A DNA stretch of 64,000 nt from an uncultured Clostridia bacterium (GTDB lineage Bacteria; Bacillota; Clostridia; TANB77; CAG-508), in assembly GCA_947626765.1 (NCBI GenBank), contig CANQTQ010000001.1:28122-92121 (forward strand), in the 5' to 3' direction. This document shows positions 11,051 to 50,943 of this stretch, one piece after another (the stretch's first letter is position 1; each line of letters opens with the position of its first letter). The notes under the pieces were generated by a model that made no database searches, was not told the DNA's origin, and saw only the letters and a list, made by a program, of their open reading frames with translations. Both the position numbers and the translations under genes were made by a program.

Positions 11051-11083
11051 CTTTAATATAATTATGTATAGTAATAATAATTT

Positions 11084-11842: not shown

Positions 11843-11920
11843 AAGTTTAAGTTCAGCTTAATGCTGATGTAGAATTTCCTAGTAATCATAATAAAAAGTC
11901 ACAACAAGGAGGAATTATTT

Positions 11921-12106
11921 ATGAAACGGCGTAGCATTGCTTACTTGCTCAATTGCATAATCCTTGGATCTATAATGGGTCTTGCAATTGTCGTTGGAGC
12001 AATAGTAAAGGAGTGCTATATAATTGCAATCCTTACAATTATTGTTTTAGGATTGCAAGTGTACTCCTATCATAAAGATGTAAAGGAAAGTGAACAGAAC
12101 AAGTAA
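11921..12106 (+). CDS. small two-TM hydrophobic protein (61 aa)
   Basis: GGAGG RBS 9 nt upstream, its own promoter, and a terminator at 12117-12148. Visibly higher G+C than its surroundings. Contains the only in-frame CGG (11927-11929) that is not tied to a frameshift. Confidence 0.5.
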   Translation: MKRRSIAYLLNCIILGSIMGLAIVVGAIVKECYIIAILTIIVLGLQVYSYHKDVKESEQNK

Positions 12107-12116
12107 CCGTTTCAAA

Positions 12117-12148
12117 AAGGGATATCTTTTAGATATCCTTTATTTTAT
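12117..12148 (+). terminator. intrinsic terminator
   Basis: GGATATCT-TTT-AGATATCC followed by a T-rich run. Confidence 0.7.
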
Positions 12149-12292
12149 ATTTACACACATATTTTTAAGATTGACTTTTATTGCTATTTGTAGTAAAGTA
12201 TATGTTACTTATTAAGCAAATTGTAATTTACATAAATGTACAAATAAAATTATTTAGATATTTTATTATTCTTATAAGGAGGTTTTATTTCT

Positions 12293-12956
12293 ATGACAAA
12301 AATTAAAGATCCTATAAGCTTTTTTTCACACGCTTTTGGTGCTGTACTTGCAGTTATAGGACTAGTTTTTTTAATTATTTACTCTGCTAAATTTGGAGAA
12401 GGTGCTTGGGATATAGTTTCTTTTACTATTTTTGGTGTAGCTTTAATTTTATTATATACTTTTAGCAGTTTATATCATTTATTAAATTTAAAGGAAACTG
12501 GAACTAAAGTGTTTCGTAAGTTTGACCATATAATGATTTACATTTTTATTGCAGCAAGTTATACTCCTATTTGTTTAGGTCCTTTAAGAGGAGGCTGGGG
12601 CTGGAGTATTTTTGGTATAATATGGGGACTTGCTATATTAGGTGTTTTTCTAACTATTTTTTGGTTAAATGCACCAAGGTGGCTTACTACTGGACTTTAT
12701 TTAGCAATGGGTTGGACTGTAATTATTGCTACATACCCATTAGTTACTACTTTTATTAAATTAAATGCTTTTAGTTCTCTTTTATGGCTTCTTGTGGGTG
12801 GAATTTTTTATACTATTGGTGGAATTTTATATGGTTTAAAATGGCCAAAATTTAAAAATAAATATTTTGGTTTTCATGAACTTTTCCACATTTTTATTTT
12901 GTTTCGGAAGTATATGTCATTTTATTTTTATTTTTTGTTACTTACTTTATGTTTAA
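12293..12956 (+). CDS. hemolysin III / PAQR family membrane protein; the frame requires skipping C12905 (zero-frame CGG)
   Basis: - Seven-TM protein with SLYHLL, FDHIMIY and FHELFHIF motifs.
- The zero frame runs into RKYMSFYFYF...
- Skipping C12905 (TTG TTT C GGA AGT ATA TGT CAT) gives ILF-G-SICHFIFIFCYLLYV, with a stop at 12954-12956. Confidence 0.8.
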
Positions 12957-13002
12957 ATTTATTATAGCAATTTATAATTCTATATCTAAAAACATTTTTA
13001 GG

Positions 13003-13031
13003 TTGACAATAATTATATTTTATGTTAATAT
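13003..13031 (+). promoter_or_regulatory. sigma-A type promoter of the stand-alone tRNA
   Basis: TTGACA (13003-13008), 17 bp spacer, TAATAT (13026-13031). Confidence 0.6.
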
Positions 13032-13056
13032 AATTAAAGCAATACTTTTATTGTTT

Positions 13057-13134
13057 GCAGCTATAGCTCAGAAGGTAGAGCGCATCTTTGAGGGGGATGG
13101 TCTTGTGAAGGTTCGAGTCCTTCTAGCTGCACCA
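13057..13134 (+). tRNA. atypical tRNA, predicted anticodon GAG, 78 nt including CCA
   Basis: - Hand-folded cloverleaf.
- Acceptor stem GCAGCTA/TAGCTGC.
- D arm GCTC-AGAAGGTA-GAGC.
- Anticodon stem CATCT/GGATG (one T.G pair) with loop TTGAGGG.
- 7-nt variable loop GTCTTGT.
- T arm GAAGG-TTCGAGT-CCTTC.
- Discriminator A, encoded CCA.
- Own promoter and terminator. Confidence 0.7.
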
Positions 13135-13164
13135 AGAGGTTCTAAAATAAGAACCTCTTTTCTT
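13135..13164 (+). terminator. intrinsic terminator after the tRNA
   Basis: AGAGGTTCT-AAAATA-AGAACCTCT followed by a T-rich run. Confidence 0.75.
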
Positions 13165-13326
13165 ATTTTATTTATTCTTGTAAACATCATAGCTATAGCC
13201 TTAATATTCCCACCTTTTTACATTGACAAATTAAGATTTTTTGTATAAAATTAAGGTGTTATGGCATAAATAATAATCATAAAATTTAAAATAAAATTGT
13301 ACATAAAAAAGGAGATATTATATTTT

Positions 13327-17655: not shown

Positions 17656-17690
17656 TTAGTAAAAAAATAATTTAAAATGTATAATAAAAA

Positions 17691-17728
17691 ATAATTATCG
17701 TAAAAATATTTACGATAATTATTTTTTT
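17691..17728 (+). terminator. intrinsic terminator
   Basis: ATAATTATCGTA-loop-TACGATAATTAT followed by T7. Confidence 0.8.
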
Positions 17729-17730
17729 AT

Positions 17731-36353: not shown

Positions 36354-36361
36354 TATTTTTT

Positions 36362-36395
36362 AATAGCTAGTAGAAAATAAAATCTACTAGCTATT
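36362..36395 (+). terminator. 13-bp stem hairpin after gyrB
   Basis: AATAGCTAGTAGA-loop-TCTACTAGCTATT. No strong T run follows. Confidence 0.5.
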
Positions 36396-36859
36396 ATCTA
36401 ATAAAGCTAATATTAATTTACAGCTAAAACTCATATACCTAACTATTGACCTAATGTATATTACTATACAAATAAGCCATTTCACCAAATATATAAATCA
36501 GTTGCTCGACTATTAATATACCCTAAATAGCCATATTCATCCTAAAATAAGGACTAATAACAACCATTTAAAAATATAAAAATAATCTTAACTTCGAATA
36601 TATAATCTATATTTTCAACCATATATTTAATATCTATTTTCATTAAAGTAACAAAAATAAACTGCAAATATAGCTTAAATACAAATAATATATTCTCATC
36701 TCCGAATTAGTACCACCTAAAAGATTATTTTAAGCAATAATAACTCTTTGCTCGAATTTTATAAAACCAAAAACAGACCTTATAAAACTCTTAGTTCAAC
36801 TAATATTAACCTTATATTCTTATTATGTTAATTTAATTTTTTTTTATTCATAAAAATTT

Positions 36860-36914
36860 TGTCGAATTTTGGCATACGATTTTTCTTGACATTTTTTGCA
36901 CATGATAGTATTAT
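36860..36914 (+). promoter_or_regulatory. promoter of the VirB4 operon with an upstream Spo0A box
   Basis: TGTCGAA (36860-36866), then TTGACA (36886-36891), 17 bp spacer, TATTAT (36909-36914). Confidence 0.55.
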
Positions 36915-37096
36915 AAAAATAGTAATTACTACTTTACATAATTTTTTTCAAAAATTTTATTCTAGGAATTCCAATACTTTAAATTGAAAAATTTATTATG
37001 AAATTAAATTTATAATGCTAGCATTATCTTATTTTTTAACATGAAATGTACTAAAAATAAAAAATTGTATTAGCAAAATATAATAAAAGGAGGAAT

Positions 37097-37669
37097 ATGG
37101 AAAATAAAAAAAATTTAACAGTTCAACAATGGCTTCCGTTTGAAAAAATTTTAAATAATGGAATTATTGAACTAAAAAATAAAGAATATATAAAAATATT
37201 AAAAATAACTCCAATAAATTTTAATTTAAAATCGGAACTAGAAAAAGAAGCTATTTTAAATTCATATAAAATATTTTTAAAGACTTGTAACTTTTGTTTT
37301 CAAATATTAATTCAAAGTAATAAAGAAGACTTAAGCAAACATATAGAAAAAATAAATGAAAACTTAACAAATGAAAAAAATTCTATTCAGGAAATTTCTA
37401 AAAATTATATTCAATATATAAAAAATTTAAATCATGATAAAAAATCCTCTACAAAAAATTTTTATATCATTTTAAAAGAAAAAAATGAAAATAAAGAAGT
37501 TTTAAATTTTGAAAATTATGCTATAGAAAATCTAAATGATAAGTATTTTAAAATAAAGGATTGTTTATCAAGGTGTGGGAATATGGTAATTTCAATAGAT
37601 ACAAAACAAGAAGCTATTTCCATTTTATTTTCTTTTTTAAATTCCAGAATATATTTAAATCAAATTTAA
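37097..37669 (+). CDS. VirB4-like conjugation ATPase, N-terminal segment (ConE/TcpF/Tn916 Orf16 type)
   Basis: WLPFEKILNNGIIELKNKEYIKILKITPINFNLKSELEKEAIL matches the N-terminal region of Gram-positive VirB4 homologues. It ends at AUU-UAA (37664-37669). Confidence 0.65.
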   Translation: MENKKNLTVQQWLPFEKILNNGIIELKNKEYIKILKITPINFNLKSELEKEAILNSYKIFLKTCNFCFQILIQSNKEDLSKHIEKINENLTNEKNSIQEISKNYIQYIKNLNHDKKSSTKNFYIILKEKNENKEVLNFENYAIENLNDKYFKIKDCLSRCGNMVISIDTKQEAISILFSFLNSRIYLNQI

Positions 37670-37679
37670 AATAGGAGGT

Positions 37680-39572
37680 ATAAAAGTTATAAAAGACCTT
37701 TTACAAAAATTAAAAAATAAAATTATTAAAGAAAAAAACAATAAAGAAAAAAATAAAGCTCTTCCTTTTTTAGAAGGTACAATTTCTCAAAAAGATGAAA
37801 TAAGTCCATCGTATATTAATTTATTAAATCCGAAATATATTGAAATAGATAATATGTATTATTCTACTTTAATAATTACAAATTATTTTAGAGAACAAAC
37901 AGATTTACTATTAAAATCATTAATTGATGCTAATATTAATTTAAATATTTCAATTTTTTATGAAAAACAAGATACTTATAAAACAATTCGAGATTTAACA
38001 TATCATATTGGAAATGTTTCTGTAGATTTAAAAGAAAGCAATCAAAATAGGCAAGATATAGATTTAGCTGCATTTACATATAATGATGCAAAATATATTA
38101 GAAAAGAAATGCAAGTAAATAATGAGGAATTATATTTTTTATATATTTATGTAACCACATTTTCTAATGAATTAAAAGAATTAGAATATTCACTAAGCAA
38201 GTTAGAAGGCTTACTACAAGGAAAAGGCATGCAAACAAAAAGAGCATATTTTAGACAAGAGCAAGCATTTTTAACTTCACTTCCAATTATGCAAAACTCT
38301 AAATTTTTAAAAGAAGCTGCAAAAAGAAATATATTAACAAGTGGACTTATGTCAACATATCCATTTATTTCTTCTGCAGTATTTGATGAAGAAGGAATTT
38401 TAATTGGAACTAACATTTATAACAATTCTTTAGTTTTTATAGACAGATATAATACTGATAAATATAAAAATGCAAATATTTGTATTTTTGGAACAAGCGG
38501 AGCTGGAAAATCTTTTTATGCAAAATTGCTTATTTTAAGAAACAGAATAATTGGAATAGAACAATATATTATAGATCCAGATAGAGAATATGGAAATTTA
38601 TGTAGCAATTTAAATGGAACTTTATTAAAAATTGGTCCAGGTTCAAATACATATATAAATGTATTTGATATTAGAGAAGAAAGCATAGAAGAAGATGGAC
38701 AAGGATATTTAGCAAATAAAATAAGCAAATTAAATGGATTTTTTAACTTAATATTTGGAAATATAAATGAAGAAGAAAAGGCTATTTTAGAAGAAAAAAT
38801 AATTGAGCTATATGGAAAAAAAGGAATTACTTTTGATGATAAAACTCTATATAAAAAGCAATATGAAAAAATATATATTAAACCAATTTTTAAGGACACA
38901 CATGATATGCCAATATTAGAAGAATTTTATGAATTATTAGGAGAAGATGAAAGAACTAAAAAATTTCAAATTAAGTTAATTCCATTTGTAAAAGGTTCAT
39001 TAAAATACTTTAACAATTATACGAATATAGAACTAAAAAATTTGTTAATAGTAGCAGATGTATATGAATTAGGAGAGGATAATTTAAAATATGGAATGTG
39101 GCTTTGTATTGATCTTTTTTGGGATCGAATAAAGAAAAATAGAGAAATAAAAAAAGCTATTTATATGGATGAAATATGGAGATTAATAGGCATTACCTCA
39201 AACAAAGAAGTAGCAAGTTTTATTTATAAGATATTTAAAACAATAAGAAAATATGGAGGAAGTAGTGTAGCAATAACACAAGATATTTCAGATTTATTTA
39301 GTTTAGAAGATGGAACTTATGGAAAAAGTATTTTAAATAATTCACAAATAAAAACATTTTTTTCTTTAGAAGAGGAAAATATTAAAGTATTAGAAAAATA
39401 TACAAATTTATCAGAAAAAGAAAAAGTGGAAATTAAATCTTTAAAAAGAGGAGAATGTTTAATGTTTATAGGAAATGAACATATTTTAACAAAAATTGAA
39501 GCAGCAGATTTTGAAGCAAATATAATAAATGGGGGAATAAAAAATGAAAAAAATAATAACAGCAATAGGTAA
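37680..39572 (+). CDS. VirB4-like conjugation ATPase, central and ATPase domains (start uncertain)
   Basis: - SPSYINLLNPKYIEIDNMYYSTLIITNY, Walker A FGTSGAGKSFYAK, Walker B IYMDEIW.
- The frame is open from 37659, but there is no ATG/GTG/TTG before 37854.
- AGGAGG lies at 37673-37678. Confidence 0.75.
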   Translation: MKVIKDLLQKLKNKIIKEKNNKEKNKALPFLEGTISQKDEISPSYINLLNPKYIEIDNMYYSTLIITNYFREQTDLLLKSLIDANINLNISIFYEKQDTYKTIRDLTYHIGNVSVDLKESNQNRQDIDLAAFTYNDAKYIRKEMQVNNEELYFLYIYVTTFSNELKELEYSLSKLEGLLQGKGMQTKRAYFRQEQAFLTSLPIMQNSKFLKEAAKRNILTSGLMSTYPFISSAVFDEEGILIGTNIYNNSLVFIDRYNTDKYKNANICIFGTSGAGKSFYAKLLILRNRIIGIEQYIIDPDREYGNLCSNLNGTLLKIGPGSNTYINVFDIREESIEEDGQGYLANKISKLNGFFNLIFGNINEEEKAILEEKIIELYGKKGITFDDKTLYKKQYEKIYIKPIFKDTHDMPILEEFYELLGEDERTKKFQIKLIPFVKGSLKYFNNYTNIELKNLLIVADVYELGEDNLKYGMWLCIDLFWDRIKKNREIKKAIYMDEIWRLIGITSNKEVASFIYKIFKTIRKYGGSSVAITQDISDLFSLEDGTYGKSILNNSQIKTFFSLEEENIKVLEKYTNLSEKEKVEIKSLKRGECLMFIGNEHILTKIEAADFEANIINGGIKNEKNNNSNR

Positions 39573-40776
39573 TCCAACATTAAATGTAAACTTAAAAAAA
39601 GAAAATGAATTTGAAGTTATGTCAGAAGACATACAATATCAAGAAGGGATATTTGAATTTTTAGAAAAAGAGCCAAATATTAATTTTATAATTTTAAGTG
39701 AATTAATACCAGGAAATTTAGAAATAAAAAATTTAATAGAGAAAATAAAATTAATTAATAATAATATACAAATAATTTTATTTTTAGAAAAAGAAAATAA
39801 AGAATTAGAAAATTATTTGTATGCAAAAGGTATAAATTTTATTTTTTATAACAATGAAATAGAAATAAAAGAAATAGTTCAAATTATAAAAACAAATCAA
39901 AAAGAAGAAAATAATGATTTAAAAAAAGAAATAGTTGAACTTAAAAAATTATTAGAAGAAAAAAATGAAAAATCTAATGTAATTTTAGAAAATACCTTAA
40001 AAAAAGAGAAATTAATTAATATATATAATAAATTTTTTTCAAGAAAAAAAACATTAAAAGAAAAAACAAAAGAAATAATTTGTGTAAGTGGAACAAGTGG
40101 CGCAGGCAAGAGCATATTTACAGTTAATTTAGCAAAATCAATAAATAAAAATAAAATTTTAATTATAGATTTTGATGTTTTAAATAACAGTTTACATACT
40201 ATTTTAGGAGTAAAAAAATATTCTGAAAAAATAATAAATAAAATGGAAAATAAATCAAATGAAATAAAAATAGAAGAATTAATAATAAAAATTAATTCTA
40301 AAATTGATTTAATATCTGGTGTTAATTTATTATTTAATTCAAATTATAAAATTAATAATGAAAAAATAAAAAATATTTTAGATACTTTAGCAAAAAAATA
40401 TAATGTAATTATTATAGATACATCTTCTGAATGCTTTTTAGATTTTACAAAAGAAATTATGAAATTATCTAATTTAAATATTTTTATTTCAGAAACAAAT
40501 TTATTACAAATAAAAAAGGCAAAAAAATTATTGAATATATATATTAATAAATGGAAAATACCAATTAAAAGTTTTTACATTATATTTAATAAATATGATG
40601 TAAATTCTATAGATTTTTCTATATTAAAAAATATATTTTCAGATTTTAATATTTTAGGAAAATTAAATAATGATTCAAATTATAATTTAATCATTAATAA
40701 AAATGCCATAGGAAATATAAATAGAAATTTACAAAAAGAATATTTAAAACTATATAAAGATTTAATAAAAAATTAA
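39544..40776 (+). CDS. TadZ/CpaE-like ATPase (pseudo-receiver N-domain plus MinD/ParA-fold ATPase)
   Basis: CVSGTSGAGKS P-loop, ILIIDFDVLNNSLHTILG, YNVIIIDTSSE. The N-terminal ~120 aa look like a receiver domain. It overlaps the VirB4 end by 29 nt. Confidence 0.6.
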   Translation: MKKIITAIGNPTLNVNLKKENEFEVMSEDIQYQEGIFEFLEKEPNINFIILSELIPGNLEIKNLIEKIKLINNNIQIILFLEKENKELENYLYAKGINFIFYNNEIEIKEIVQIIKTNQKEENNDLKKEIVELKKLLEEKNEKSNVILENTLKKEKLINIYNKFFSRKKTLKEKTKEIICVSGTSGAGKSIFTVNLAKSINKNKILIIDFDVLNNSLHTILGVKKYSEKIINKMENKSNEIKIEELIIKINSKIDLISGVNLLFNSNYKINNEKIKNILDTLAKKYNVIIIDTSSECFLDFTKEIMKLSNLNIFISETNLLQIKKAKKLLNIYINKWKIPIKSFYIIFNKYDVNSIDFSILKNIFSDFNILGKLNNDSNYNLIINKNAIGNINRNLQKEYLKLYKDLIKN

Positions 40777-40833
40777 TTATAAAATTAAAAATATAATAAA
40801 TAAAAAAGTAATAAAAATAAAAGGAGAATAAAA

Positions 40834-41586
40834 ATGGAAAATTTATTAAAAGAGGAAACTAAACAAAAAGCATTAAATCAAGAAATAGAAAAAAATGAAA
40901 CAAATGAATTAGTTACAGAAAAAGAGCAAACTGGATTTTTAAATTCTACTATAGGAAAAGTAATAAATACAGCTATAGACTTAGGTTTAAGATGGATGTT
41001 ACCAGATTTTGTTGAAAATCAAGTAATAGATGTAAAAAATAGTTTAATAAAAGGTGGTTTAAAAGAAGGAATTAACAAAGCAGTTGAAAGTGGAATTGAA
41101 TTAGGAAAAAGTGTAACGGGTATATTTACAGGAAAATTTGAAAATATTTCTCAAGCACAAAATGCAATAAAAAATGGTGGAATTATTGATGGAGTATCTA
41201 ATGTATTAGATACTGCTATATCTACTAGTATAAAAAATGGCTGGTTGCCAATAAATGTAGCTAGTTTAATTAGACAAGGAAAAAATGTAATACTAGATAA
41301 TATTAGTACAAATATTGAAACTGAATTTGTAAGTCAATTAGATAATGTAGAAAAGTTAGGAAAATATGAAAATAATTGGCGCAATTATTATAATTCAAAA
41401 GACTTTGACGGAATGGAAAGAGAATATCAAAAAATAAAAGATAGGTTAAAAGAATTATTACCTTTAGAAAATACTATTAAGCAAGCAAGAGAAATTGAAA
41501 ATATACATTTATTAATAAAAAATAATGGACATGATTTTAATTTAAGTCAAGAGCAATTACAATTAGCTGGAATATTAACTGCATAA
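40834..41586 (+). CDS. hypothetical protein (250 aa)
   Basis: Good RBS (AAGGAG), last gene of the operon before gyrA. No motif recognised. Confidence 0.45.
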   Translation: MENLLKEETKQKALNQEIEKNETNELVTEKEQTGFLNSTIGKVINTAIDLGLRWMLPDFVENQVIDVKNSLIKGGLKEGINKAVESGIELGKSVTGIFTGKFENISQAQNAIKNGGIIDGVSNVLDTAISTSIKNGWLPINVASLIRQGKNVILDNISTNIETEFVSQLDNVEKLGKYENNWRNYYNSKDFDGMEREYQKIKDRLKELLPLENTIKQAREIENIHLLIKNNGHDFNLSQEQLQLAGILTA

Positions 41587-41797
41587 GTTTTATTATATTA
41601 AAATTATTTGCTATTACTTAAAGCCTAATATTTATGGCAAAAATAAAAAAATATTTTAATAAATAGATAGATACTCTAAAATTTGTAATTTATTTTGAAT
41701 AGTAATTAAATAGCATTTTTCTTCTACTTTTTACTTGCATATTTTTTTCCATTTTAGTATAATTAACAGGTAAGAAAACAAGAAAAGAGGTATAAAA

Positions 41798-44251
41798 ATG
41801 GAAGCAAATGAGCAAAAAAGAAATGACGGAAAAATAATAGAACGTGACATAGAAAAAGAAATGCGTACTGCTTATATTGATTATGCTATGAGTGTTATTG
41901 TATCTAGAGCACTTCCAGATGTAAGAGATGGATTAAAACCAGTTCATAGAAGAATTTTATACTCTATGTATGAAGATGGTATTACATCAGACAAGCCATA
42001 TAGAAAATGTGCAAATACTGTAGGTTCTGTTTTAGGTAGATATCATCCACATGGAGATTCTTCTGTATATGATGCTATGGTCAGATTAGCACAAGACTTT
42101 ACGCAAAGATATCCTTTAATTGATGGACATGGAAATTTTGGATCTGTTGATGGAGATAGCCCAGCTGCTATGAGGTACACAGAAGCAAGAATGGCTAAAA
42201 TTGCAGAAACAATGCTTACTGATATAGAAAAAAATACAGTAAATTTTATGCCAAACTATGATGATAGATTACAAGAACCAACTGTACTTCCTGCAAAAAT
42301 ACCTACATTATTAATTAATGGTTCATCTGGTATTGCAGTAGGAATGGCAACAAATATTCCACCACATAATTTAACAGAAGTAATAAATGGAATTATAAAA
42401 ATTATAGATGAAGATAATGTTACAGATGAAGAATTAATGGAAGTAATAAAAGGACCTGATTTTCCTACAGAAGGAATTATATTAGGTTTAGAAGGAATTA
42501 AACAAGCCTATACAACAGGAAAAGGAAAAATAACGGTAAGAGCAGAAGCTGAAATAGAAGAAATGAGTGGAAATAGGCAAAGAATTATTGTAAATTCTCT
42601 TCCATATCAAGTAAACAAAGCAAAATTAATTGAAGATATGGCTGATTTAGTTAAAGAAAAAAGAATAGAAGGAATTTCAGAAATTAGAGATGAATCAGAT
42701 AGAGAGTCAAAAATAAGAATAGTAATTGAATTAAAAAGAGATGTAAATGCTCAAGTAATTTTAAATCAATTATATAAACATACACAACTTCAAGATACAT
42801 TTGGTATTATAATGCTTGCCTTAGTAAATGGTGAACCTAAAATATTAACGCTAAGACAATGCTTAGACTATTATATTGATCATAGAAAAGATGTAATTCT
42901 TCGTAGAACGCAATTTGACTTAGACAAAGCATTAGCAAGAGCACATATTTTAGAAGGATTGAAAATTGCCTTAGACAATATTGATGAAGTAATTGAAATT
43001 ATTCGTAATTCTTATGATGATGCAAAAGAAAGATTAATGGAAAGGTTTAAACTTTCTGAAATTCAAGCGCAAGCTATACTAGATATGAGATTAAGAACAT
43101 TATCAGGATTGCAAAGAGAAAAAATTGATGAAGAATATAATGAACTAATGAAATTAATTGAACATTTAAGAGCAGTTTTAGCAAGCGAAAGATTAGTATA
43201 TGACATTATAAAGGAAGAATTATTAGAAATAAAGCAAAAATATGGTGATGAGAGAAGAACAAAAATTGTTGCTGCAGAAGGAGAAATTAACATTGAAGAT
43301 TTAGTAAAAGAAGAACAAACCGTAATTACGTTAACACACTTTGGTTACATAAAGAGAATGCCAATAGATACATATAAAAGCCAAAAACGTGGAGGAAAAG
43401 GAATTACAGGATTAGCAACAAGAGAAGAAGACTTTGTAAAACAAATATTTACAGCCTCAACTCATGATACAATATTATTCTTTAGCAATAAAGGAAAGCT
43501 TTATAGACTAAGAGGATATGAAGTACCAGAAGCAGGAAGAACAGCAAAAGGAACTGCAATAGTTAATTTATTAAGATTAGATGCAGGAGAAAAAATATCA
43601 GCAGTTATTCCAATTTCTAACTTTGCAGAAGGAAAATATTTATTAATGGGAACTAAAAAAGGCTTCATTAAAAAAACACCATTAAATGAATTTGATTCTA
43701 GTAGAAAAACCGGTCTTTTATCTATTACACTAAGAGAAGATGACGAATTAATAGATGTTAGATTAACAGATGGTGAAGATAATGTTGTATTGGTAACTCG
43801 TGAAGGTGCTTGTATTACATTTGGAGAAAAAGATGTAAGACCAATGGGAAGAACTGCACAAGGTGTTATAGGTATTCGCTTAAATGAAGAAGATTCTGTA
43901 ATAGGAATGGAAAGCATCATTGAGGGAAATAAAAATGCTACGCTACTTGCAATTACAGAAAATGGATTTGGAAAAAGAACAGAATTAAATGAATACAGAG
44001 TTCAAACAAGAGGTGGAAAAGGCGTAACTACATATAAAATTACACCAAAAACAGGAAGCTTAGTAGGAATTCGTATTGCAACAGATGATGAAGACGTAAT
44101 GCTTATTACAGAAAACGGAACAATTATTAGATTAAGAGTAAAAGATATTAGTGTTTTAGGTAGATCAACACAAGGTGTTACACTTATGAGAACAAATGAA
44201 GGAAAGGTAGTTAGCATAGAAACTATTAATCCAGAGGAAGAAGAAAAATAA
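41798..44251 (+). CDS. gyrA: DNA gyrase subunit A
   Basis: ALPDVRDGLKPVHRRILY, HPHGDSSVYDAMVRLAQDF, AAMRYTE catalytic Tyr, C-terminal beta-pinwheel repeats. Confidence 0.95.
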   Translation: MEANEQKRNDGKIIERDIEKEMRTAYIDYAMSVIVSRALPDVRDGLKPVHRRILYSMYEDGITSDKPYRKCANTVGSVLGRYHPHGDSSVYDAMVRLAQDFTQRYPLIDGHGNFGSVDGDSPAAMRYTEARMAKIAETMLTDIEKNTVNFMPNYDDRLQEPTVLPAKIPTLLINGSSGIAVGMATNIPPHNLTEVINGIIKIIDEDNVTDEELMEVIKGPDFPTEGIILGLEGIKQAYTTGKGKITVRAEAEIEEMSGNRQRIIVNSLPYQVNKAKLIEDMADLVKEKRIEGISEIRDESDRESKIRIVIELKRDVNAQVILNQLYKHTQLQDTFGIIMLALVNGEPKILTLRQCLDYYIDHRKDVILRRTQFDLDKALARAHILEGLKIALDNIDEVIEIIRNSYDDAKERLMERFKLSEIQAQAILDMRLRTLSGLQREKIDEEYNELMKLIEHLRAVLASERLVYDIIKEELLEIKQKYGDERRTKIVAAEGEINIEDLVKEEQTVITLTHFGYIKRMPIDTYKSQKRGGKGITGLATREEDFVKQIFTASTHDTILFFSNKGKLYRLRGYEVPEAGRTAKGTAIVNLLRLDAGEKISAVIPISNFAEGKYLLMGTKKGFIKKTPLNEFDSSRKTGLLSITLREDDELIDVRLTDGEDNVVLVTREGACITFGEKDVRPMGRTAQGVIGIRLNEEDSVIGMESIIEGNKNATLLAITENGFGKRTELNEYRVQTRGGKGVTTYKITPKTGSLVGIRIATDDEDVMLITENGTIIRLRVKDISVLGRSTQGVTLMRTNEGKVVSIETINPEEEEK

Positions 44252-44253
44252 AT

Positions 44254-44296
44254 AAAAAAATACATCTCAAATTATATTTGAGGTGTATTTTTTTAT
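44254..44296. terminator. bidirectional intrinsic terminator (gyrA / loader gene)
   Basis: A run, TACATCTCAA-loop-TTGAGGTGTA, T run. Confidence 0.75.
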
Positions 44297-44321
44297 GTAA
44301 AAATTATTAAATATATTAAGT

Positions 44322-45317
44322 TTAATGAGTTAATCTAATATCATCACCAAAGAAATAACAAATATTATAGTACCCAATAATTCTAGAGACTATTCTTTCA
44401 TCATAAGCATCAAAAATATCTTGCAAACTTAAATTAGTAGAAATAATAGTTTTAGTAATTTTTTTTGAATTTAATAGTCTAGCATTTAATAAATTAAATA
44501 GCTCTACTAATTTCATATTATTAATTCCTTCTGTTCCCAAATCATCAATAATTAATAAGTCCACATTAAGCAAATGCTCATAAATGTCAGAAGAAACGTT
44601 GGATTTTCCTAAATGATAATTAATAATTGTATCTAGCATAACAGAAGAAGTTTGATATAATACAGTTTTACCTTGTTTTAATAATTCATTTGCAATACAG
44701 CTAGAAAGAAATGTTTTTCCAAGACCTGTTCTTCCTGTAAATAATAAATTTTTTTCTGATAAATCATCAAAATTAGAAATAAATTTCTTACAAATATCTA
44801 AAATTAACTTAATATTTTCTCTTGGAGAAATATCTGAACCATATTTATCTTTTGAAATTTCATTAGAATATAAATTTAAATTAAAATTATTAAAATTTTG
44901 TTTTTCTAAATTACTAATGTTAGATTTATTATATTCTATATTATAAATTTTTTGCTTTAAACAATTGCACATTTTAGAAGATTTACCATCAAAAACGTAA
45001 CCAGTATCATTACAAATTTTACATTCATAATTAGGAATAATACTTTCTGCTTCTTTACCAATAGACTTTAATATTTTTTCTTTTTGTTTTTTTAAAATAG
45101 TAATATCTGAATTTAATTTTTCAATTAGTTCTTTATTATTATTTTGAGCTAATTCTTTCATTGCAGAAAAAGCTAAAGAGCTTAATTTTTTATCAATATC
45201 AAAAAGTTCAGGAAATTTATTATATAAATTTTCTTTATTTTTTTGAGCAAACTCTTCAGCAAATATCCTTTTTTTATTATATTCAATTAATAAAGAATTA
45301 AGAGTAGAATTATTCAA
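44322..45317 (-). CDS. DnaC/DnaI-type helicase loader ATPase
   Basis: Cys cluster CKICNDTGYV...CNCL, Walker A FTGRTGLGKTFL, Walker B LLIIDDLG. Confidence 0.8.
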   Translation of the reverse strand: MNNSTLNSLLIEYNKKRIFAEEFAQKNKENLYNKFPELFDIDKKLSSLAFSAMKELAQNNNKELIEKLNSDITILKKQKEKILKSIGKEAESIIPNYECKICNDTGYVFDGKSSKMCNCLKQKIYNIEYNKSNISNLEKQNFNNFNLNLYSNEISKDKYGSDISPRENIKLILDICKKFISNFDDLSEKNLLFTGRTGLGKTFLSSCIANELLKQGKTVLYQTSSVMLDTIINYHLGKSNVSSDIYEHLLNVDLLIIDDLGTEGINNMKLVELFNLLNARLLNSKKITKTIISTNLSLQDIFDAYDERIVSRIIGYYNICYFFGDDIRLTH

Positions 45318-45335
45318 AATAAAACCTCCACTAAA

Positions 45336-46304
45336 CTAATTTTTTTTGTTTGCATATAATTCATTTAAATTACTATAAGATCTTTGATCGTATTTTTGGT
45401 ATTCAGTTTTCTTTTCTAATTGCTTTATATTTTTATTCTTTTGTTTCATATCTTCTAAAAATTTTTGAACTTGTTCTGGAGTTGTAAATTTTCTATCATG
45501 CCAATCTGTTAATAATTTATCAATATAATCAAAGCTAGGGTTTACTTTAGAAGTAGTTCTTTTTAATGCAATTTCAATTATATCAAAAGAAAAAGCGAAA
45601 TCTATAATCCATTTTTCAACATAATTAAATTCATATTGAGATAAAGGTCTAGATATATTTAATTTTTTAATAATCATATTAGCAATTTTATTTACTTTTT
45701 CTTGTTTTTCATAATATAATTCCAAATCATTATAAGTTTTAATTGAATTTTTAGACCAAGCATCTGCTACTACTTGAATATAATTTCTATGAAGAGCAGA
45801 CTTATCAAAACAATATTCAAATAAAGCAATCATAACTTCATCATCAAATTCATATTTTTTAAACCATAATTCAATATCTGGATACCATGTAGTTGGCATT
45901 AAACCAGAGAAAAATTTATTATTAATATATTCAAGAGTTTTTGCACGCTTTTGGCTTTCAGCAGATTTTTGAATTTGCTCAGCAGATAAAGAAACTCTTG
46001 GCTTATATAAATGATGTAGTTCTATTTCTTGTAAATTATTAAAAACAAATCCAGTATTTTTTCTAACAAGTACGTTTTGATCTTCCCAATATTTAATAGC
46101 ATCTTGAATTACTTTTAGAGAAAGCCCTAATTTCTTACATAAATCATTTACTTTAATATCTTTATCATATTTAGAAAGAAATAAAATATATAAATATACT
46201 TTAACAAAATCGCTATTTGCTTCTGGCAAATATTCTGTAAAAAATATATCTGGTATATTTGTATTTGAAAACAATGGCAATAAATCATTTTGCTCTAATT
46301 TCAT
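45336..46304 (-). CDS. DnaD-domain replication initiation protein (DnaB/DnaD family)
   Basis: 322 aa; the DnaD-like repeats DDEVMIALFEYCFDKSALHRNYIQVVADAWSKNSIKT and FDIIEIALKRT...YIDKLLTDWHDRKFTT. Paired with the loader ATPase. Confidence 0.75.
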   Translation of the reverse strand: MKLEQNDLLPLFSNTNIPDIFFTEYLPEANSDFVKVYLYILFLSKYDKDIKVNDLCKKLGLSLKVIQDAIKYWEDQNVLVRKNTGFVFNNLQEIELHHLYKPRVSLSAEQIQKSAESQKRAKTLEYINNKFFSGLMPTTWYPDIELWFKKYEFDDEVMIALFEYCFDKSALHRNYIQVVADAWSKNSIKTYNDLELYYEKQEKVNKIANMIIKKLNISRPLSQYEFNYVEKWIIDFAFSFDIIEIALKRTTSKVNPSFDYIDKLLTDWHDRKFTTPEQVQKFLEDMKQKNKNIKQLEKKTEYQKYDQRSYSNLNELYANKKN

Positions 46305-46379
46305 AGAGATTCCTCCAATTATTGTATTTTGAAAAAATTATATCATTTTTCTACAAAATTTACAACAAAACGAAATATA

Positions 46380-46760
46380 AAAGTAAAATAATTTTTAATA
46401 AATAAAAATGTTAAATTCTTATAAAACATAATATAAAAAAAATAAAAAATAATAAAGGAATAAAAATAATAAAATAAAAAATAAAAATTGAAAATTTAAA
46501 AATAAAAATTAAAATAAAAACTAAAATTAAAAATAGAATAAAAATTATAAATTAAAATAATAAAATCAAAAATAAAAATAATTTGAAATAAAAATAAAAA
46601 ATATAATAAAAATAAAATTAAAAAACAAAATAATAAAACAAAAAATTTAAAAATAATAAAATAATAAAATTAAAAAAAGAAAATTAAAAACATAAAAAAG
46701 TAAATTATTAAAATTAATATTAACAAATAGAAAACGAAAAAAGTAGAAAAGTAAGATATA
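46380..46760 (+). repeat. A-rich low-complexity block (inverted counterpart of the T-rich blocks at 17.7-19.9 kb)
   Basis: Runs of AAAAAT/AAAATT-type units with almost no G or C. No ORF. Confidence 0.7.
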
Positions 46761-47193
46761 AAAGTCACATAAGATAATGTAAAAAAATGTAAATTAGAAA
46801 TGATAGAAAAAATGCAAAAATATGTTCACGTATATCTAGATTGTTTTATAAAATATTAACACTAAATTTTGTATAAAATATAATAAAAATTTCAAAAATA
46901 AAAATTGTCAAAATGTAGCTAAGGTGAAAAATCCATTGTATAATTTGAAGTAAATATTATGCCATATAAATGATTAAAATTTAATAGAAAGGCAGAATAT
47001 AACAAAATTTAAAATATGAATTTGTAAAAAAAGTATTGGGATTGAATACTTTTAATAACATTTTATAATAAGTTCAAACGATATACATAACAAAGATTAT
47101 GAAAACTAACATACATCCTTATGAACTTTAAAATAATAAGGCTCATTATATAAAGTTAGTAAGAAAAACAACAGAACGAACAAAAAGACAATT

Positions 47194-47478
47194 TTATTGC
47201 TTCGAATATAAATATAACTTTGGACTCTTAATATAATGTATAATATATACTAAAATATATACTATATTTTCATGATTAAAACCGATTATGCTAAACAAAA
47301 AAATTGGAAAGCAGAATAGTATAAACACAAATATTTTTACATTTAAATTTTTGAAAAATAAATTTATCAAAATAAAAATAATAGCATCCCAAATAATATT
47401 TAATATTAAAGATGAATAATCTAAAATTCCAAATAATTTATTTTTAAAATTATAATTTTGTGGAAAAATAAATTTCAT
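47194..47478 (-). CDS. PrgI/VirB3-like small membrane protein
   Basis: 94 aa from the ATG after GAGGAG (the track start is 15 nt upstream). MKFIFPQNYNFKNKLFGILDYSSLILNIIW plus two TM helices, as in PrgI/TcpE-type T4SS components. Confidence 0.5.
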   Translation of the reverse strand: MKFIFPQNYNFKNKLFGILDYSSLILNIIWDAIIFILINLFFKNLNVKIFVFILFCFPIFLFSIIGFNHENIVYILVYIIHYIKSPKLYLYSKQ

Positions 47479-47493
47479 AATTAATCTCCTCAT

Positions 47494-47672
47494 ATAAAAA
47501 TTAAATAAAATATAAATTAAATTATAAATATTATTTAAAATAATAAATTTATAATAATTAAAAAATAAATAATAAATAATAAATAGTAAATAATGAATAA
47601 TAAAATAAACAATAGAATAAATAATAAAATAAAAATTATAAATTTAATATTAATAAAATAAATTTATCTTTA
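47494..47672 (+). repeat. A-rich low-complexity block with ~7-nt AAATAAT-type periodicity
   Basis: AAATAATAAATAATAAATAGTAAATAATGAATAATAAAATAAAC... It lies between the VirB6-like and PrgI-like genes. Confidence 0.7.
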
Positions 47673-48557
47673 TTATATATTTTTTAATGTATTAGCTCCA
47701 ATTTGCAAATTATTAGAAACATCAGTAGAAATTCCTCCAATTAAAGTTCTTATATATGAATTAGCATGAATTAAAGCATAAATACCGCCAATATAAATTA
47801 ATTTAGAAAGAATGTTTTCACTTTGATATGGTACAGAAAAAATAATTAATAAAATAATTGAAATAAAAGATTGTTGTAATAATAAGGATAAAATTGTTCT
47901 GAACCACGTTTTAAAAAGCCAAGAAGTAGAACTATTTATTAAACTTAAAATAGCAAATGGAGTTAATAAGATAAATATTTTTATTAAAATAAAGCGCAAA
48001 GAATATGAAAAAATTAAATTAAATAAACCTATTGAAATAAAACTTTTTATCATTCCATCAAATGAAAATACAGTAAAACTTTCTTCATTAATAGAAATAT
48101 AATTATTTAATTGAGTAATTAATCCTGAAAAAGAAATTTCGCTTCCTAAAATTTTTCCTCCAATATTTCTAATTGCATCAGAAATAAAACTATTAAGTTC
48201 TAAAAATTGCTTACAAATTAAGTAGGAGCAATTCATAACAATTCCAAAAATTAATAATTTAAATACAAATTGAAAAGGTCTTTCTATTTGTAAGTTCATA
48301 TAATAAGAATATAATAATCTAATTGCATAATATAAACTAAAACCAAACAGCAAGGAATTTGCAATTAAAAGCAAACCATTTGAAGAATTTGTACCAAATA
48401 ATTTTTCAAAAATAGAATCAGTTAAAATATTACTATTAACAAAAGTAATTTCATCTAATATTTTATAAACACTATTATCAATAGAAGAAAATAAAGTTTG
48501 AAAAATAGAATTAATAGTTTGAATAATTGTATTAGTTAAAGAAGTAGGATCTTCCAA
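47673..48557 (-). CDS. VirB6/TrbL-like polytopic membrane protein
   Basis: 294 aa with 6 or more predicted TM helices. The call rests on its position between the VirB2-like and VirB3-like genes. Confidence 0.5.
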   Translation of the reverse strand: MEDPTSLTNTIIQTINSIFQTLFSSIDNSVYKILDEITFVNSNILTDSIFEKLFGTNSSNGLLLIANSLLFGFSLYYAIRLLYSYYMNLQIERPFQFVFKLLIFGIVMNCSYLICKQFLELNSFISDAIRNIGGKILGSEISFSGLITQLNNYISINEESFTVFSFDGMIKSFISIGLFNLIFSYSLRFILIKIFILLTPFAILSLINSSTSWLFKTWFRTILSLLLQQSFISIILLIIFSVPYQSENILSKLIYIGGIYALIHANSYIRTLIGGISTDVSNNLQIGANTLKNI

Positions 48558-48569
48558 AAACAGCGCCTC

Positions 48570-48926
48570 CTATTTTAATAATGTTTGAATTGCAGATAAA
48601 ACTAAATCTAAAACAAGAATAAAAGCATATGAAAATAAAGTACTTCTAATTAATTTTTTGGCAATTCTTATTCTTTCTTCATCTCCAAAACTAAACTTTT
48701 GCATAAAAACGCCAACAGCTATTGCAACTGCAGCTGCAGGAGTAGCAAGCTTTAGCAGCCAACTTTCAATTTGCTCAAATGTAGAATTTAATTTGTCTAC
48801 AATTTGTGGATTTCCATCAAATAAACCAGCATAAACTGGAGAATAAAAAAATACATAAAAAATCATAAATAAAAATAATATTTTTATAAAAAAATTTTGA
48901 TTGAATTTTAATTTTTTTGTAAACAT
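48570..48926 (-). CDS. VirB2/TrbC-like pilin-type protein
   Basis: 118 aa: signal peptide ending VYA, then two hydrophobic helices (ATPAAAVAIAVGVFM, LFSYAFILVLDLVLSAI). Confidence 0.5.
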   Translation of the reverse strand: MFTKKLKFNQNFFIKILFLFMIFYVFFYSPVYAGLFDGNPQIVDKLNSTFEQIESWLLKLATPAAAVAIAVGVFMQKFSFGDEERIRIAKKLIRSTLFSYAFILVLDLVLSAIQTLLK

Positions 48927-48958
48927 AAAATCACTCCTTGAAATAAATTTTGAATTAA

Positions 48959-50683
48959 TTATTTAAAATATGGAAATAAATTAATTTTTTGTGGGTGAAT
49001 TATTTTAGAACCATCAGAAAGAAATGCTAGGCAGGAAAAATTTTTAAGTGATTGCGTAAAAAAGTTTGTATCATATACAAAATCAGAATAAATATGAGTA
49101 TTAATAGTTTCTGATATACTAGAATTTTTAGAATTCAATGAATTAGTAAAATAGCTAAAAACAGTTTCTTTAGCATTTTCTGAAAAGCCTCTTGAGATTT
49201 TTTCTTTATCTTCTTTTCCAATCTGTTTTTGTGCAGTTTCAATTGTAAAAATATCATCATTACGAAACCATAATTTATTAATTAAATTTTGAATAATAAC
49301 ATTAACAGCAGCTTGATTATGTAAAGTATTAAGAAGCGAAGTATAGCTTTGAGTAGCAACAATATTAATACATTTAGCTTCTCTACTTTGAGAAAAAAAG
49401 TTAGCATCTGTTTCTGTACAATATTCCGAATATTCATCTGAAATAAAACAAACACTTCTAAAATTAGAATAATTATTTTTGGCTAATCTTGACATAACAT
49501 CAGTTTGAAAATCTAATTTTAAATATGCAGCAATTATTTTTGATAGACTAGAATATTCATTGATATTCATGTTTAAAACTACAATTTTACCTTTAGAAAG
49601 AACTTCTTCGAAACCAAAAAAATTTAATTCTTCTTTACTAGGGTTAAATGTTTTTAAAACATCATAATCAGATATAAAACAATTTGTAATACGAGTAATT
49701 TCAGATTTTAAAATAGATAATGTTCTATCATCTAATGATAAAAATTCTTTTTGAAAGAAAGTTATAGCAGAAAGCAAATCATAAATTTGGTTATTAGAAA
49801 ATTCATTTTGAAAAAACTTTTCACGTAATAAGTTAACTTTTTCTAAATAATAATCTGGAATTGTTACTAATTTATGTAATTCTTGAAAAGTAACATAATT
49901 ATCATTATATAGCCTACAAAGTTTAATACATTCTTCTAAAATTTGAGAAGCTTTATCAAGCCAGTAAGATTCAGTATTATTCTTAGAAAAAAGTAATAAA
50001 ATTGTTTTTAAACGATTTGCTAATATAGAGGGTTTTAAATTTGGTTTATGTAAAGGATTATATTTGTATTTACCATTTAATTCAATAGTAATAACATCAT
50101 TTTCTCTATTAAATTCTTGTGCAAACTCTAGTACTTTTTTGTGATAATTTCCTTTTACATCTAAAATAAGCATACCAAGTTTTTCATTTTCAACATTATG
50201 CAAATAGCCAATTAATTGCTTAGTAAATGGATACATTGCACTACTAGTTTTTCCTGTTCCAATAGTTCCTGTGATTAAAATATTTTGATATAAACTTTTT
50301 TCGGGTAAATATATTAAACTTTTTTCTTGTTCAGTTTCACCAACTAATAATCTTAAAGAATTATCTAATTCCAAATTTATGAAAGAAGTTGAACTCTTTT
50401 GCTTTTTAATTTTAGGTTTATATTTTTTTGAATTTTTTAAAGATTTATGAAAAAGTAACTGATATATTGTATTAGAAAAAAAGAAGGAAGAAAAAATATA
50501 AGTAAAACAAAACCAAATTTTACAATATTTCCATAAAACAGGTTGTTCTATACAAATATCAAAAGAATGAAGCCCATAATCTACTATAATATGATTTTTA
50601 TTATAAAGTGGAATAAAAATTTGAAAACCAATAAAACAAAATAAAGACATAAAAAATAAAGTAAATAAGATACGTTTTAACAA
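48959..50683 (-). CDS. type IV coupling protein (VirD4/TraG/TraD family ATPase)
   Basis: N-terminal TM helices, Walker A ITGTIGTGKTSS, Walker B CFISDEYSEY, NIVATQSY. Confidence 0.7.
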   Translation of the reverse strand: MLKRILFTLFFMSLFCFIGFQIFIPLYNKNHIIVDYGLHSFDICIEQPVLWKYCKIWFCFTYIFSSFFFSNTIYQLLFHKSLKNSKKYKPKIKKQKSSTSFINLELDNSLRLLVGETEQEKSLIYLPEKSLYQNILITGTIGTGKTSSAMYPFTKQLIGYLHNVENEKLGMLILDVKGNYHKKVLEFAQEFNRENDVITIELNGKYKYNPLHKPNLKPSILANRLKTILLLFSKNNTESYWLDKASQILEECIKLCRLYNDNYVTFQELHKLVTIPDYYLEKVNLLREKFFQNEFSNNQIYDLLSAITFFQKEFLSLDDRTLSILKSEITRITNCFISDYDVLKTFNPSKEELNFFGFEEVLSKGKIVVLNMNINEYSSLSKIIAAYLKLDFQTDVMSRLAKNNYSNFRSVCFISDEYSEYCTETDANFFSQSREAKCINIVATQSYTSLLNTLHNQAAVNVIIQNLINKLWFRNDDIFTIETAQKQIGKEDKEKISRGFSENAKETVFSYFTNSLNSKNSSISETINTHIYSDFVYDTNFFTQSLKNFSCLAFLSDGSKIIHPQKINLFPYFK

Positions 50684-50943
50684 TAAAAAGCCTCCTATTT
50701 TAATAGATTTGTTTTTAATTTTAACTTAGAACCTTGTAAATTGTGAAATATTTTTACCTCGAAAAAAGTATATAATGAATAAAAAAAGATAAAAGAATTG
50801 ATAATAAGAAGTATGAAAAAATAATCAATTAATTCTATTTTATATCACCTCACTTTTTTTATAATATAACAAATTTTAAAATTTGTCTATACTTTTTTAT
50901 AAAAATATGATAAAATAAAATATGGTTTGGAAAGGAGAATACT

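Follow-up and report, generated by a model that had tools for sequence, protein, structure and literature searches.

A probably domesticated, conjugation-derived type IV secretion gene set among the origin-proximal replication genes of an order of uncultured gut Clostridia

Why should the genes of a type IV secretion system (T4SS) lie interleaved with the replication genes at a chromosomal origin? The question is raised by a stretch of 64,000 nucleotides from an uncultured Clostridia bacterium (assembly GCA_947626765.1, contig CANQTQ010000001.1, positions 28,122 to 92,121), which as a whole is called the window below. It is a classical origin region, with yidC, jag, mnmE, mnmG, rsmG, soj and parB on the minus strand, dnaA (30285), dnaN, recF and gyrB (to 36353) on the plus strand, and ksgA further downstream. 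A preliminary description of this DNA stated that four genes separate gyrB from gyrA, that four more lie beyond gyrA on the opposite strand (VirD4, VirB2-like, VirB6-like and PrgI/VirB3-like), and that together they could be a domesticated apparatus fixed at the origin rather than a recently integrated element. All eight genes are present (Table 1), the first of them, a TrsD-like gene, 5.5 kb downstream of dnaA. We compared the genome (1.48 Mb in 57 contigs, 97% complete, 26.8% GC, from a rabbit gut metagenome) with 41 relatives belonging to five families, f1 to f5, of one order. The set probably descends from a Gram-positive conjugation machine of the mating-pair formation class FATA (MPF-FATA) that became fixed in the chromosome, is passed on vertically and is still under selection, and that the whole order keeps among its origin-proximal replication genes. 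The order is presumably GTDB TANB77, given the placement of 'Clostridium sp. CAG' genomes; its members are uncultured gut Clostridia with genomes of ~1-2 Mb, and the closest named genome is Clostridium sp. CAG:571.

Profile searches supported the earlier assignments of VirB4 and VirD4 directly and that of VirB6 through an orthologue. The VirB4 ATPase matched the CD1110 (E-value 5.7e-81), TraC (4.3e-47) and P-loop_TraG (3e-18) families, the profile of its orthologues found the VirB4 domain of PDB 4AG5 (8e-70), and its Walker A motif, GTSGAGKS, is invariant; it is the VirB4-family ATPase expected of an MPF-FATA T4SS. The TrsD-like open reading frame (ORF) before it matched VirB4_plasma (4e-10), CD1110 over residues 1-127 (4.9e-9) and TrsD (8.9e-6) in NCBIfam. 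Outside the TrsD family its matches are confined to the N-terminal 130-160 residues of VirB4 proteins that consist of a single chain, and its orthologue in one relative (L013) matched TrsD at 8.8e-13. The VirD4-like protein is a coupling protein of the VirD4/TraG/TraD kind, as shown by matches to TrwB_AAD_bind (3.4e-9; 36.5 bits against a cut-off of 20.5), TraG-D_C (3.7e-4) and SXT_TraD (7.5e-8) and by a profile match to DotL/IcmO (6SZ9, 4.3e-5); it is very divergent and has no match to T4SS-DNA_transf.

The PrgI-like and VirB6-like proteins of the window had no direct matches in Pfam or NCBIfam, and the channel (VirB6/PrgH-type) and its VirB3/PrgI-type partner were recognized through orthologue profiles. 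A VirB6-like orthologue (L012:821-1711, 38% identical) matched TrbL/VirB6 (PF04610) at 7.8e-7, with 29.5 bits against a cut-off of 25.9. The profile of the PrgI-like orthologues aligned with PrgI-family proteins (hhalign, 93.4%, E-value 2.5e-7), and the PrgI-family members used as templates themselves pass the Pfam PrgI cut-off. The candidate pilin has a conserved FSFGDEE loop between its two helices and, in the alignment, an invariant TPAA..G..K.FSFGDE core; it is the weakest of the eight assignments. Between gyrB and gyrA, three of the four genes had profile matches, the third being a TadZ-like ATPase (CbiA, 6.8e-9; CpaE_hom_Actino, 0.0035), whose orthologue matched AAA_31 (1.7e-9), CbiA and, weakly, Response_reg. 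The fourth gene, for a 250-residue protein named unk250 here, belongs to no known family.

The set proved to be a property of the order. A VirB4 orthologue was found in 40 of the 41 relatives, with 75-94% identity for members of the genus and 32-52% for those of four other families, and VirD4-like and VirB6-like genes were found in 31 and 33, respectively. In the checked metagenome-assembled genomes (MAGs) that lack these genes, gyrA was missing too or the contig ended there, and these absences are therefore assembly gaps; the idea that some species of the genus have truly lost the system was rejected on the same grounds. The order gyrB-TrsD-VirB4-TadZ-..-unk250-gyrA recurred in f1, in f4 and in many named MAGs, Clostridium sp. 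CAG:571 among them, and its gyrA side in f5 as well. The order VirD4-pilin-VirB6-PrgI-DnaD-DnaC forms a single string in every family that has a VirD4-like gene (f1, f3, f4 and f5), and it is kept even where the two strings lie on different contigs or 200 kb apart. Thus both strings are syntenic across families, with gene order unchanged where protein identity has fallen to 30-50%. Families f1, f4 and f5 also keep the small gene that diverges from the VirD4-like gene, a marker of the fixed border of this string in the chromosome.

All T4SS reading frames in the window are intact. Measured against the closest relative (dS ~0.3), the ratio of nonsynonymous to synonymous substitution rates (dN/dS) was 0.04 for TrsD, 0.085 for VirB4, 0.088 for VirD4, 0.083 for PrgI, 0.11 for VirB6, 0.15 for the pilin and 0.16 for unk250, compared with 0.03 for gyrA, 0.15 for DnaC and 0.18 for a short-chain dehydrogenase/reductase (SDR) gene. 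Seven of the eight T4SS genes are therefore under purifying selection like their housekeeping neighbours; gyrA itself is 98.5% identical in the closest relative. The composition of the genes matches the host, as had been noted before: the GC content at third codon positions is 0.06-0.16 in the T4SS genes and 0.09-0.11 in gyrA and gyrB, and it is the amino-acid composition of the T4SS proteins that makes the overall GC of their genes lower.

An integrative and conjugative element (ICE) would be expected to have a relaxase and oriT, an integrase or recombinase, flanking attachment-site (att) repeats and a patchy distribution independent of lineage, and the origin set does not fit this description. 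No relaxase or integrase was seen among the scanned ORFs of at least 150 residues at 11-29 kb and 53-64 kb of the window (1-11 kb was left out), nor in a free-standing HNH ORF described below, and neither conserved string contains a relaxase in any family. The ORFs scanned were those of yidC, jag, mnmE, mnmG, rsmG, soj, parB, ksgA and others. The search for att-like direct repeats returned A-rich, low-complexity matches only. The statement in the preliminary description that the window holds no relaxase, integrase, wall hydrolase, VirB8-like protein or att repeat thus holds for the strings and, as regards relaxase, integrase and att repeats, for the scanned flanks.

Where did the machine come from? 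In a maximum-likelihood tree of 56 VirB4 sequences, the VirB4s of the origin set (origin-type) formed one clade (support 95/76; 99 by the Shimodaira-Hasegawa-like approximate likelihood ratio test in a larger quick tree), within which the branches run parallel to the families. Its sister group (100/100) was made up of VirB4s scattered among larger Clostridial genomes, those of CD1110-type ICEs, elements that carry a canonical VirD4, an NlpC/P60 hydrolase, PrgI and integrase fragments. In comparisons with the equivalog NF045971 (conju_CD1110) the ATPase ORF reached 272.8 bits and the TrsD-like ORF 35 bits, below the cut-off of 325; the origin-type VirB4 is a sister clade of the CD1110 family, not a member. 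BLAST had hinted at another relationship, as the origin-type VirB4 matched Patescibacteria with E-values of 1e-60 to 1e-78 in 40 of 41 sampled genomes, compared to 1e-34 for its own paralogues. However, the tree placed it neither inside the Patescibacteria clade nor as its sister, and the approximately unbiased (AU) test rejected a single clade of origin-type and Patescibacteria sequences (cost of 78 log-likelihood units, p-AU 7e-10).

The other proteins of the set have left fewer traces elsewhere. The VirD4-like protein had no close relatives outside the order among Clostridia and Patescibacteria, bar one 53%-identical match, and the remaining origin T4SS proteins had no matches among the ICE loci. 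The most economical account is that an ICE-type T4SS was domesticated at or before the base of the order, after which its accessory parts would have diverged strongly and a Tad-like trio of genes would have been added. A recent ICE, on the other hand, is ruled out by the synteny, the VirB4 tree, the selection on the genes and the lack of att repeats, integrase and relaxase, and the proposal of a domesticated apparatus gains its support from the same order-wide synteny, the family-mirroring VirB4 clade and the purifying selection. The single outside match to the VirD4-like protein (G105:C97:1151-2506) lies on a small contig of an 84%-complete MAG from another family of the class, and could reflect mis-binning or a rare transfer.

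Table 1. Features of the origin-proximal T4SS region, in coordinates of the window.
Feature	Position	Strand	Remarks
Spacer between gyrB and TrsD-like gene	36354..37096	+	ORF-free, AT-rich, 20.5% GC
TrsD-like protein, 190 aa	37097..37669	+	Homologous to N-terminal domain of single-chain VirB4
VirB4 ATPase body	37680..39572	+	Frame open from ~37659; first canonical start ATG 37854
TadZ/CpaE-like P-loop ATPase, 410 aa	39544..40776	+	N-terminal receiver-like extension, MinD/ParA-type domain
unk250, soluble all-alpha protein, 250 aa	40834..41586	+	Conserved; last gene of VirB4 operon in f1, f3, f4, f5
gyrA	41798..44251	+	Housekeeping; interleaved with the machine, not part of it
DnaC/DnaI-type helicase loader	44322-45317	-	PRK06835, 1.2e-96, above cut-off
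DnaD-domain protein	45336-46304	-	DnaB_2, 2.9e-31
PrgI/VirB3-like membrane protein, 99 aa	47194..47493	-	Two predicted transmembrane helices
VirB6-like polytopic membrane protein, 294 aa	47673..48557	-	Assigned via orthologue
VirB2/TrbC-like pilin candidate, 118 aa	48570..48926	-	Signal peptide, two hydrophobic helices
VirD4-type coupling protein, 574 aa	48959..50683	-	N-terminal transmembrane helices, Walker A GTIGTGKTSS
Small protein, 61 aa	50944..51129	+	Divergent from VirD4-like gene

The preliminary description saw VirB4 as broken into two pieces. Two ORFs do exist, but a separate TrsD-like ORF followed by an ATPase ORF was found in all five families, and the split is best read as an ancestral two-gene layout of TrsD plus ATPase, not as a break. 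Genetic code 4 was rejected as a cure for the split: the genome uses table 11, and reading the region with table 4 instead changed nothing, VirB4 included. The conserved N-terminal segment of VirB4, FLEG..SPSYINLLNPKYIEID, sits upstream of the ATG at 37854, and no ATG, GTG or TTG lies ahead of it at 37655-37860. At 37673-37679 there is an AGGAGGT, followed by ATA, GTT and ATA codons. Many species of the genus show the same lack of a start, and have ATA, ATT or GTT no more than a few bases beyond a GGAGGT (junctions compared in 24 relatives), and in f2 and f3 the ATPase ORF opens with an ordinary ATG. Because the conserved segment precedes the first ATG, we propose that the ATPase is probably made as a separate protein, initiated at a non-canonical ATA or ATT just past the AGGAGGT. 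Relatives G001, G005, G010 and G018 have VirB4 in two pieces and G003, G007, G012, G013 and G022 have single internal stops in it, while the VirD4 frame has breaks or stops in G022 and G003; these breaks and stops, in genes that are well conserved otherwise, could be MAG errors or real pseudogenes.

The TadZ-like gene, which overlaps the 3' end of virB4 by 29 nucleotides, was rejected as the chromosome-partition ParA, since a canonical soj-parB pair lies at 21-22.8 kb (Soj, 21964-22770). Its history became apparent from the relatives. In f3, f4 and f5, in a rumen MAG (L041) and in Clostridium sp. CAG:1219, two extra genes lie between the TadZ-like gene and unk250. The first encodes a T2SSE ATPase of 400-436 residues, whose best curated matches are VirB11 (1.4e-46) and a TadA-family, conjugal-transfer-associated ATPase (6.5e-37), and the second a membrane protein of 291-313 residues with a T2SSF domain above threshold. 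Their presence in f3, f4 and f5 points to an ancestral operon TrsD-VirB4-TadZ-VirB11/TadA-T2SSF-unk250, which would combine the motor of a T4SS with an ATPase and a platform of Tad-like type. Neither extra gene occurs anywhere in this 97%-complete genome, where the only T2SSE ATPases are PilB and PilT of the type IV pilus locus (PilB/PilT/PilC) on contig C9; by this comparison the genus of the window has evidently lost the ATPase and the platform. For the TadZ-like gene itself dN/dS is 0.26-0.83, higher than for any other gene of the set, and several close relatives within the family, MAGs named Clostridium sp. or uncultured Clostridia, have it in shortened form or not at all; for these reasons we regard it as a probable decaying relic of the three-gene module.

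The last gene of the VirB4 operon, unk250, had no matches in Pfam or NCBIfam. Its orthologues were found in f1, f3, f4 and f5, the families that keep the full operon. An AlphaFold2 model (mean predicted local distance difference test score, pLDDT, 86.9) has ten helices, and a comparison of this model with the PDB gave no fold match (best E-value 0.66).

Of the spacers, that between gyrB and the TrsD-like gene is likely to be the promoter region of the VirB4 operon. Its best sigma-70-like site is TTGACA-17-TATTAT at 36886-36914, in AT-rich DNA where promoter and terminator scans are at chance level, and a spacer of comparable length is found in the closest relative (L024). A search for known RNA elements gave no Rfam matches in the long spacers. 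The spacers that flank the PrgI-like gene, 46305-47193 and 47494-47672, are very A-rich (~14% GC) and of low complexity. That between DnaD and PrgI ranges from 57 bp to >2 kb in relatives, and is therefore not a conserved element.

Were the two strings once a single operon, split by an inversion that captured gyrA and the loader genes, as first suggested? Geometrically this is possible: one inversion, from the gyrB/TrsD junction to the DnaD/PrgI junction, would yield a single operon running from VirD4 to unk250, and family f2 has PrgI directly upstream of TrsD-VirB4. A recent capture does not fit, as the split layout is old and, in each of the families examined, DnaD-DnaC come after the VirD4 string. 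The genome has one copy of DnaD only, which is therefore the housekeeping gene. The linkage of dnaD-dnaC to VirD4 and of gyrA to VirB4 may come from origin-proximal dosage and operon hitch-hiking only, and a functional tie of the T4SS strings to replication is possible.

How does the set compare with known systems? Almost all Patescibacteria (the candidate phyla radiation, CPR) have a chromosomal, MPF-FATA-derived T4SS with TrsD, VirB4, PrgI, VirB6 and VirB2-like pilins (PMC12102498). It has no relaxase and often lies beside dnaA, dnaN and ksgA (PMC12102498), and its co-option, with a gene-dosage benefit of the origin-proximal site, has been proposed (PMC12102498, Quinonero-Coronel et al. 2025); it is essential for the epibiotic growth of Southlakia epibionticum (PMC12102498, PMC12857230). 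The origin set shares with it the MPF-FATA origin, the separate TrsD and VirB4, PrgI/VirB3, VirB6 and a VirB2-like pilin, the lack of a relaxase, the chromosomal location and vertical inheritance in small genomes, and the position beside origin genes of the dnaA/dnaN/ksgA type. Its architecture is thus that of the Patescibacteria type, with the pilin weakly supported. In contrast to CPR, where VirD4 is mostly remote and the pilins form an array, VirD4 here belongs to the conserved string and the pilin gene is single. The ancestral TadZ/VirB11/T2SSF module has not been reported for CPR, and the host here is a Bacillota lineage.

The CD1110-family ICEs (NF045971; CTn-type, MPF-FATA) are the closest VirB4 relatives (35-38% identity, E-value ~1e-100), and they too have PrgI-like, VirB6-like and small pilin-like genes and a VirD4. 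They differ in having a single-chain VirB4 of 840-870 residues, NlpC/P60, a canonical VirD4 (T4SS-DNA_transf, 8e-49) and integrase fragments, compared to the split VirB4 and very divergent VirD4 of the origin set and its lack of hydrolase, relaxase and integrase. They are also patchy (~11 of 200 Clostridia genomes), whereas the origin set tracks host phylogeny. The Trs systems of staphylococcal plasmids (pGO1/pSK41-type; TrsD plus TrsE) have the same two-gene VirB4, a TrsD-like protein of ~200 residues followed by the ATPase. They are plasmid-borne and conjugative and have a relaxase, and their likeness to the origin set consists of this layout and the NCBIfam TrsD matches.

With Tad/Flp systems and the actinobacterial 'helicase/secretion neighbourhood' (TIGR03815, TIGR03819), the ancestral operon shares the order of TadZ/CpaE-like, T2SSE and T2SSF-like genes. 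It differs from Tad/Flp in that the string has neither Flp pilin nor prepilin peptidase and the three genes have become part of a VirB4 operon; within the window only the TadZ-like gene of a type IVc system is present. A Tad-type pilus cluster with CpaB, a ParA-like protein, CpaF, TadB/C and seven pilin-like genes has been described in TANB77 (PMC11680825). It is a different locus, as it is Tad-type and this genome has no CpaF-type ATPase. No relevant work on type IV secretion in TANB77 came out of our search of the literature.

From these parts a working model can be drawn. A membrane-anchored VirD4 hexamer would recruit the substrate, and TrsD and VirB4 would dock on PrgI/VirB3 and the VirB6 channel. 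VirB4 would pull the VirB2-like pilin from the membrane, giving a short conduit or pilus through the wall, and the substrate would be exported in a contact-dependent manner. Because the conserved strings have no dedicated relaxase, this substrate is more likely to be protein than DNA. A site near the origin would probably keep the dosage of the genes high and linked to replication, as has been suggested for the T4SS of Patescibacteria. A wall hydrolase and a VirB8-like scaffold may be unneeded or supplied elsewhere, possibly by a second T4SS cluster.

Several observations weigh against a fixed and still-selected machine of this kind. No hydrolase or VirB8/TcpC-like gene was found in either string in any family, although no structural search for the VirB8 fold was made, and with neither of these nor a substrate in the strings the machine looks incomplete on its own. 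Family f2 has PrgI-TrsD-VirB4 only and no VirD4; VirB4 is therefore of some value without a coupling protein. The loss of the VirB11/TadA-like ATPase and the T2SSF-like platform from the genus could mean that the system is being dismantled. The pilin candidate matched T4SS_pilin (PF18895) at 6e-4 in the window and 2e-4 in an orthologue, and TrbC at 0.018, all below the cut-offs, and its profile-profile match to the TrbC-type pilins of contig C6 was weak (10%, E-value 0.003). Family membership alone suggests that the VirD4-like protein, very divergent as it is, acts as a substrate receptor. Finally, the sequencing runs that hold this sequence are all of rabbit-gut DNA, with no RNA runs among them.

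A second conserved T4SS cluster lies on contig C6 of the same genome (G000:C6, ~9900-21050). It has three TrbC/VirB2-type pilins (2.4e-10), PrgI, a TrsD-like protein of 410 residues, a VirB4 of 658, a VirB6-like protein of 639 and a 692-residue protein with lysozyme and C39-like hydrolase regions, and it has no VirD4. In the tree its VirB4 grouped with the Patescibacteria clade (98/92) on a long stem, a grouping whose alternative was not rejected by the AU test (p = 0.11). If it holds, the C6 cluster, rather than the origin set, may be the true Bacillota counterpart of the CPR system. The genes yqeY and that for an M16 peptidase flank this cluster (G000:C6 22500-26200), and in f3 the same two genes adjoin the TrsD-VirB4-TadZ-VirB11-T2SSF-unk250 operon (L020 1-4400).

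The two clusters might be parts of one composite machine, in which the origin set gives the sole coupling protein and C6 the wall hydrolase and the pilin array. The parts are complementary in this respect, a C6-type VirB4 occurs in nearly every relative, and f2 has lost VirD4 yet keeps the origin-type PrgI-TrsD-VirB4. Nevertheless we consider a composite unlikely, as each set owns a VirB4, VirB3, VirB6 and pilin, as expected of two independent machines, and the two VirB4s are only 25-28% identical and fall in separate parts of the tree.

Does the machine still move DNA? It might donate or release chromosomal DNA near oriC, or act on mobilisable elements in trans, with a relaxase that is encoded elsewhere or goes unrecognised. 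ParA-like helpers of DNA export are known, VirC1 and gonococcal ParA being examples, and the operon holds a ParA-like ATPase; a VirD4-type coupling protein has been kept, and its string is tied to dnaD-dnaC in all families that have it. The genome also has a separate, mobile-element-type transfer module on contig C3 (G000:C3, ~700-16000), with a weak MobA/VirD2-like candidate (412 residues; PF03432, 0.0048), a VirD4 split into 349 and 296 residues, a pilin-like protein, a VirB6-like protein in two ORFs, PrgI, a TrsD-like protein, a DNA methylase, a 576-residue VirB4 and an M23 peptidase. However, this sole relaxase candidate belongs to an element equipped with a VirB4 and a VirD4 of its own, relaxases are missing from both conserved strings in all families, and adjacency to replication genes may merely reflect origin-proximal placement, which makes DNA transfer distinctly unlikely in our view. 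Many of the small C3 proteins end in acidic EE-F-E/D tails.

It is very unlikely that the set builds a pilus, an adhesion structure or a DNA-uptake organelle (ComB-like competence or a surface filament) in place of an export machine. The highly conserved core of the VirB2-like pilin candidate would suit such a role, as would the ancestral association with TadZ, TadA-like and T2SSF-like genes, which is typical of filament assembly systems. Yet the genus has lost precisely the ATPase and the platform of filament type, and the genome has a complete PilB/PilT/PilC type IV pilus locus. To our knowledge ComB-type uptake systems have no VirD4, whereas here VirD4 is conserved under purifying selection. 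That the genes are the slowly decaying, functionless remnant of an ancient ICE, as the lost VirB11/TadA-like and T2SSF-like genes, the variably truncated TadZ-like gene and the internal stops or split VirB4 and VirD4 frames of several relatives might suggest, is scarcely credible and is largely refuted by selection and synteny, with dN/dS of 0.04-0.16 in seven of eight genes, equal to housekeeping neighbours, frames intact in the window, and the same gene order across families at 30-50% identity.

What would a fixed and selected origin set mean? VirB2 pilins are absent from Gram-positive T4SSs, with Patescibacteria as the one exception (2025 review, PMC12857230), and among monoderms Patescibacteria are so far the only group for which fixed, relaxase-less chromosomal T4SSs with VirB2-like pilins are on record. 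Here the same outcome would have been reached independently, from a Clostridial ICE-type ancestor, in a widespread uncultured order of gut Bacillota, and the position near the origin amid replication genes is just as remarkable. This opens the questions of what a T4SS does without self-transfer, how far gut Clostridia with reduced genomes depend on contact with other cells, and where the CPR system came from. In annotation, the origin T4SS genes should not be labelled mobile-element remnants or pseudogenes.

A bolder possibility, which we regard as rather doubtful, is that the order carries two core-genome, relaxase-less, pilin-bearing T4SSs, one locked to oriC and the other, that of C6, sister to the Patescibacteria T4SS. 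If so, conjugation-derived machines would be near-housekeeping organelles for contact-dependent dealings, a role thought to be that of the CPR T4SS in epibiotic growth, and the lineage would be either a recipient of the CPR system or its monoderm relative or donor, which has long been sought. The VirD4-pilin-VirB6-PrgI-dnaD-dnaC string would then tie expression of the machine to replication initiation.

Two further features of the window lie apart from the T4SS genes. At 17000-20500, between a gene for a 1452-residue acyl-CoA dehydratase activase-like protein and two tRNA-Ser genes, ~3 kb of DNA has 12-18% GC and no ORF of at least 150 residues. The free-standing HNH ORF (51889-52278), which lies beside tRNA genes, has a partial match to the HNH region of the RNA-guided endonuclease IscB (NF040563, 1.7e-8).

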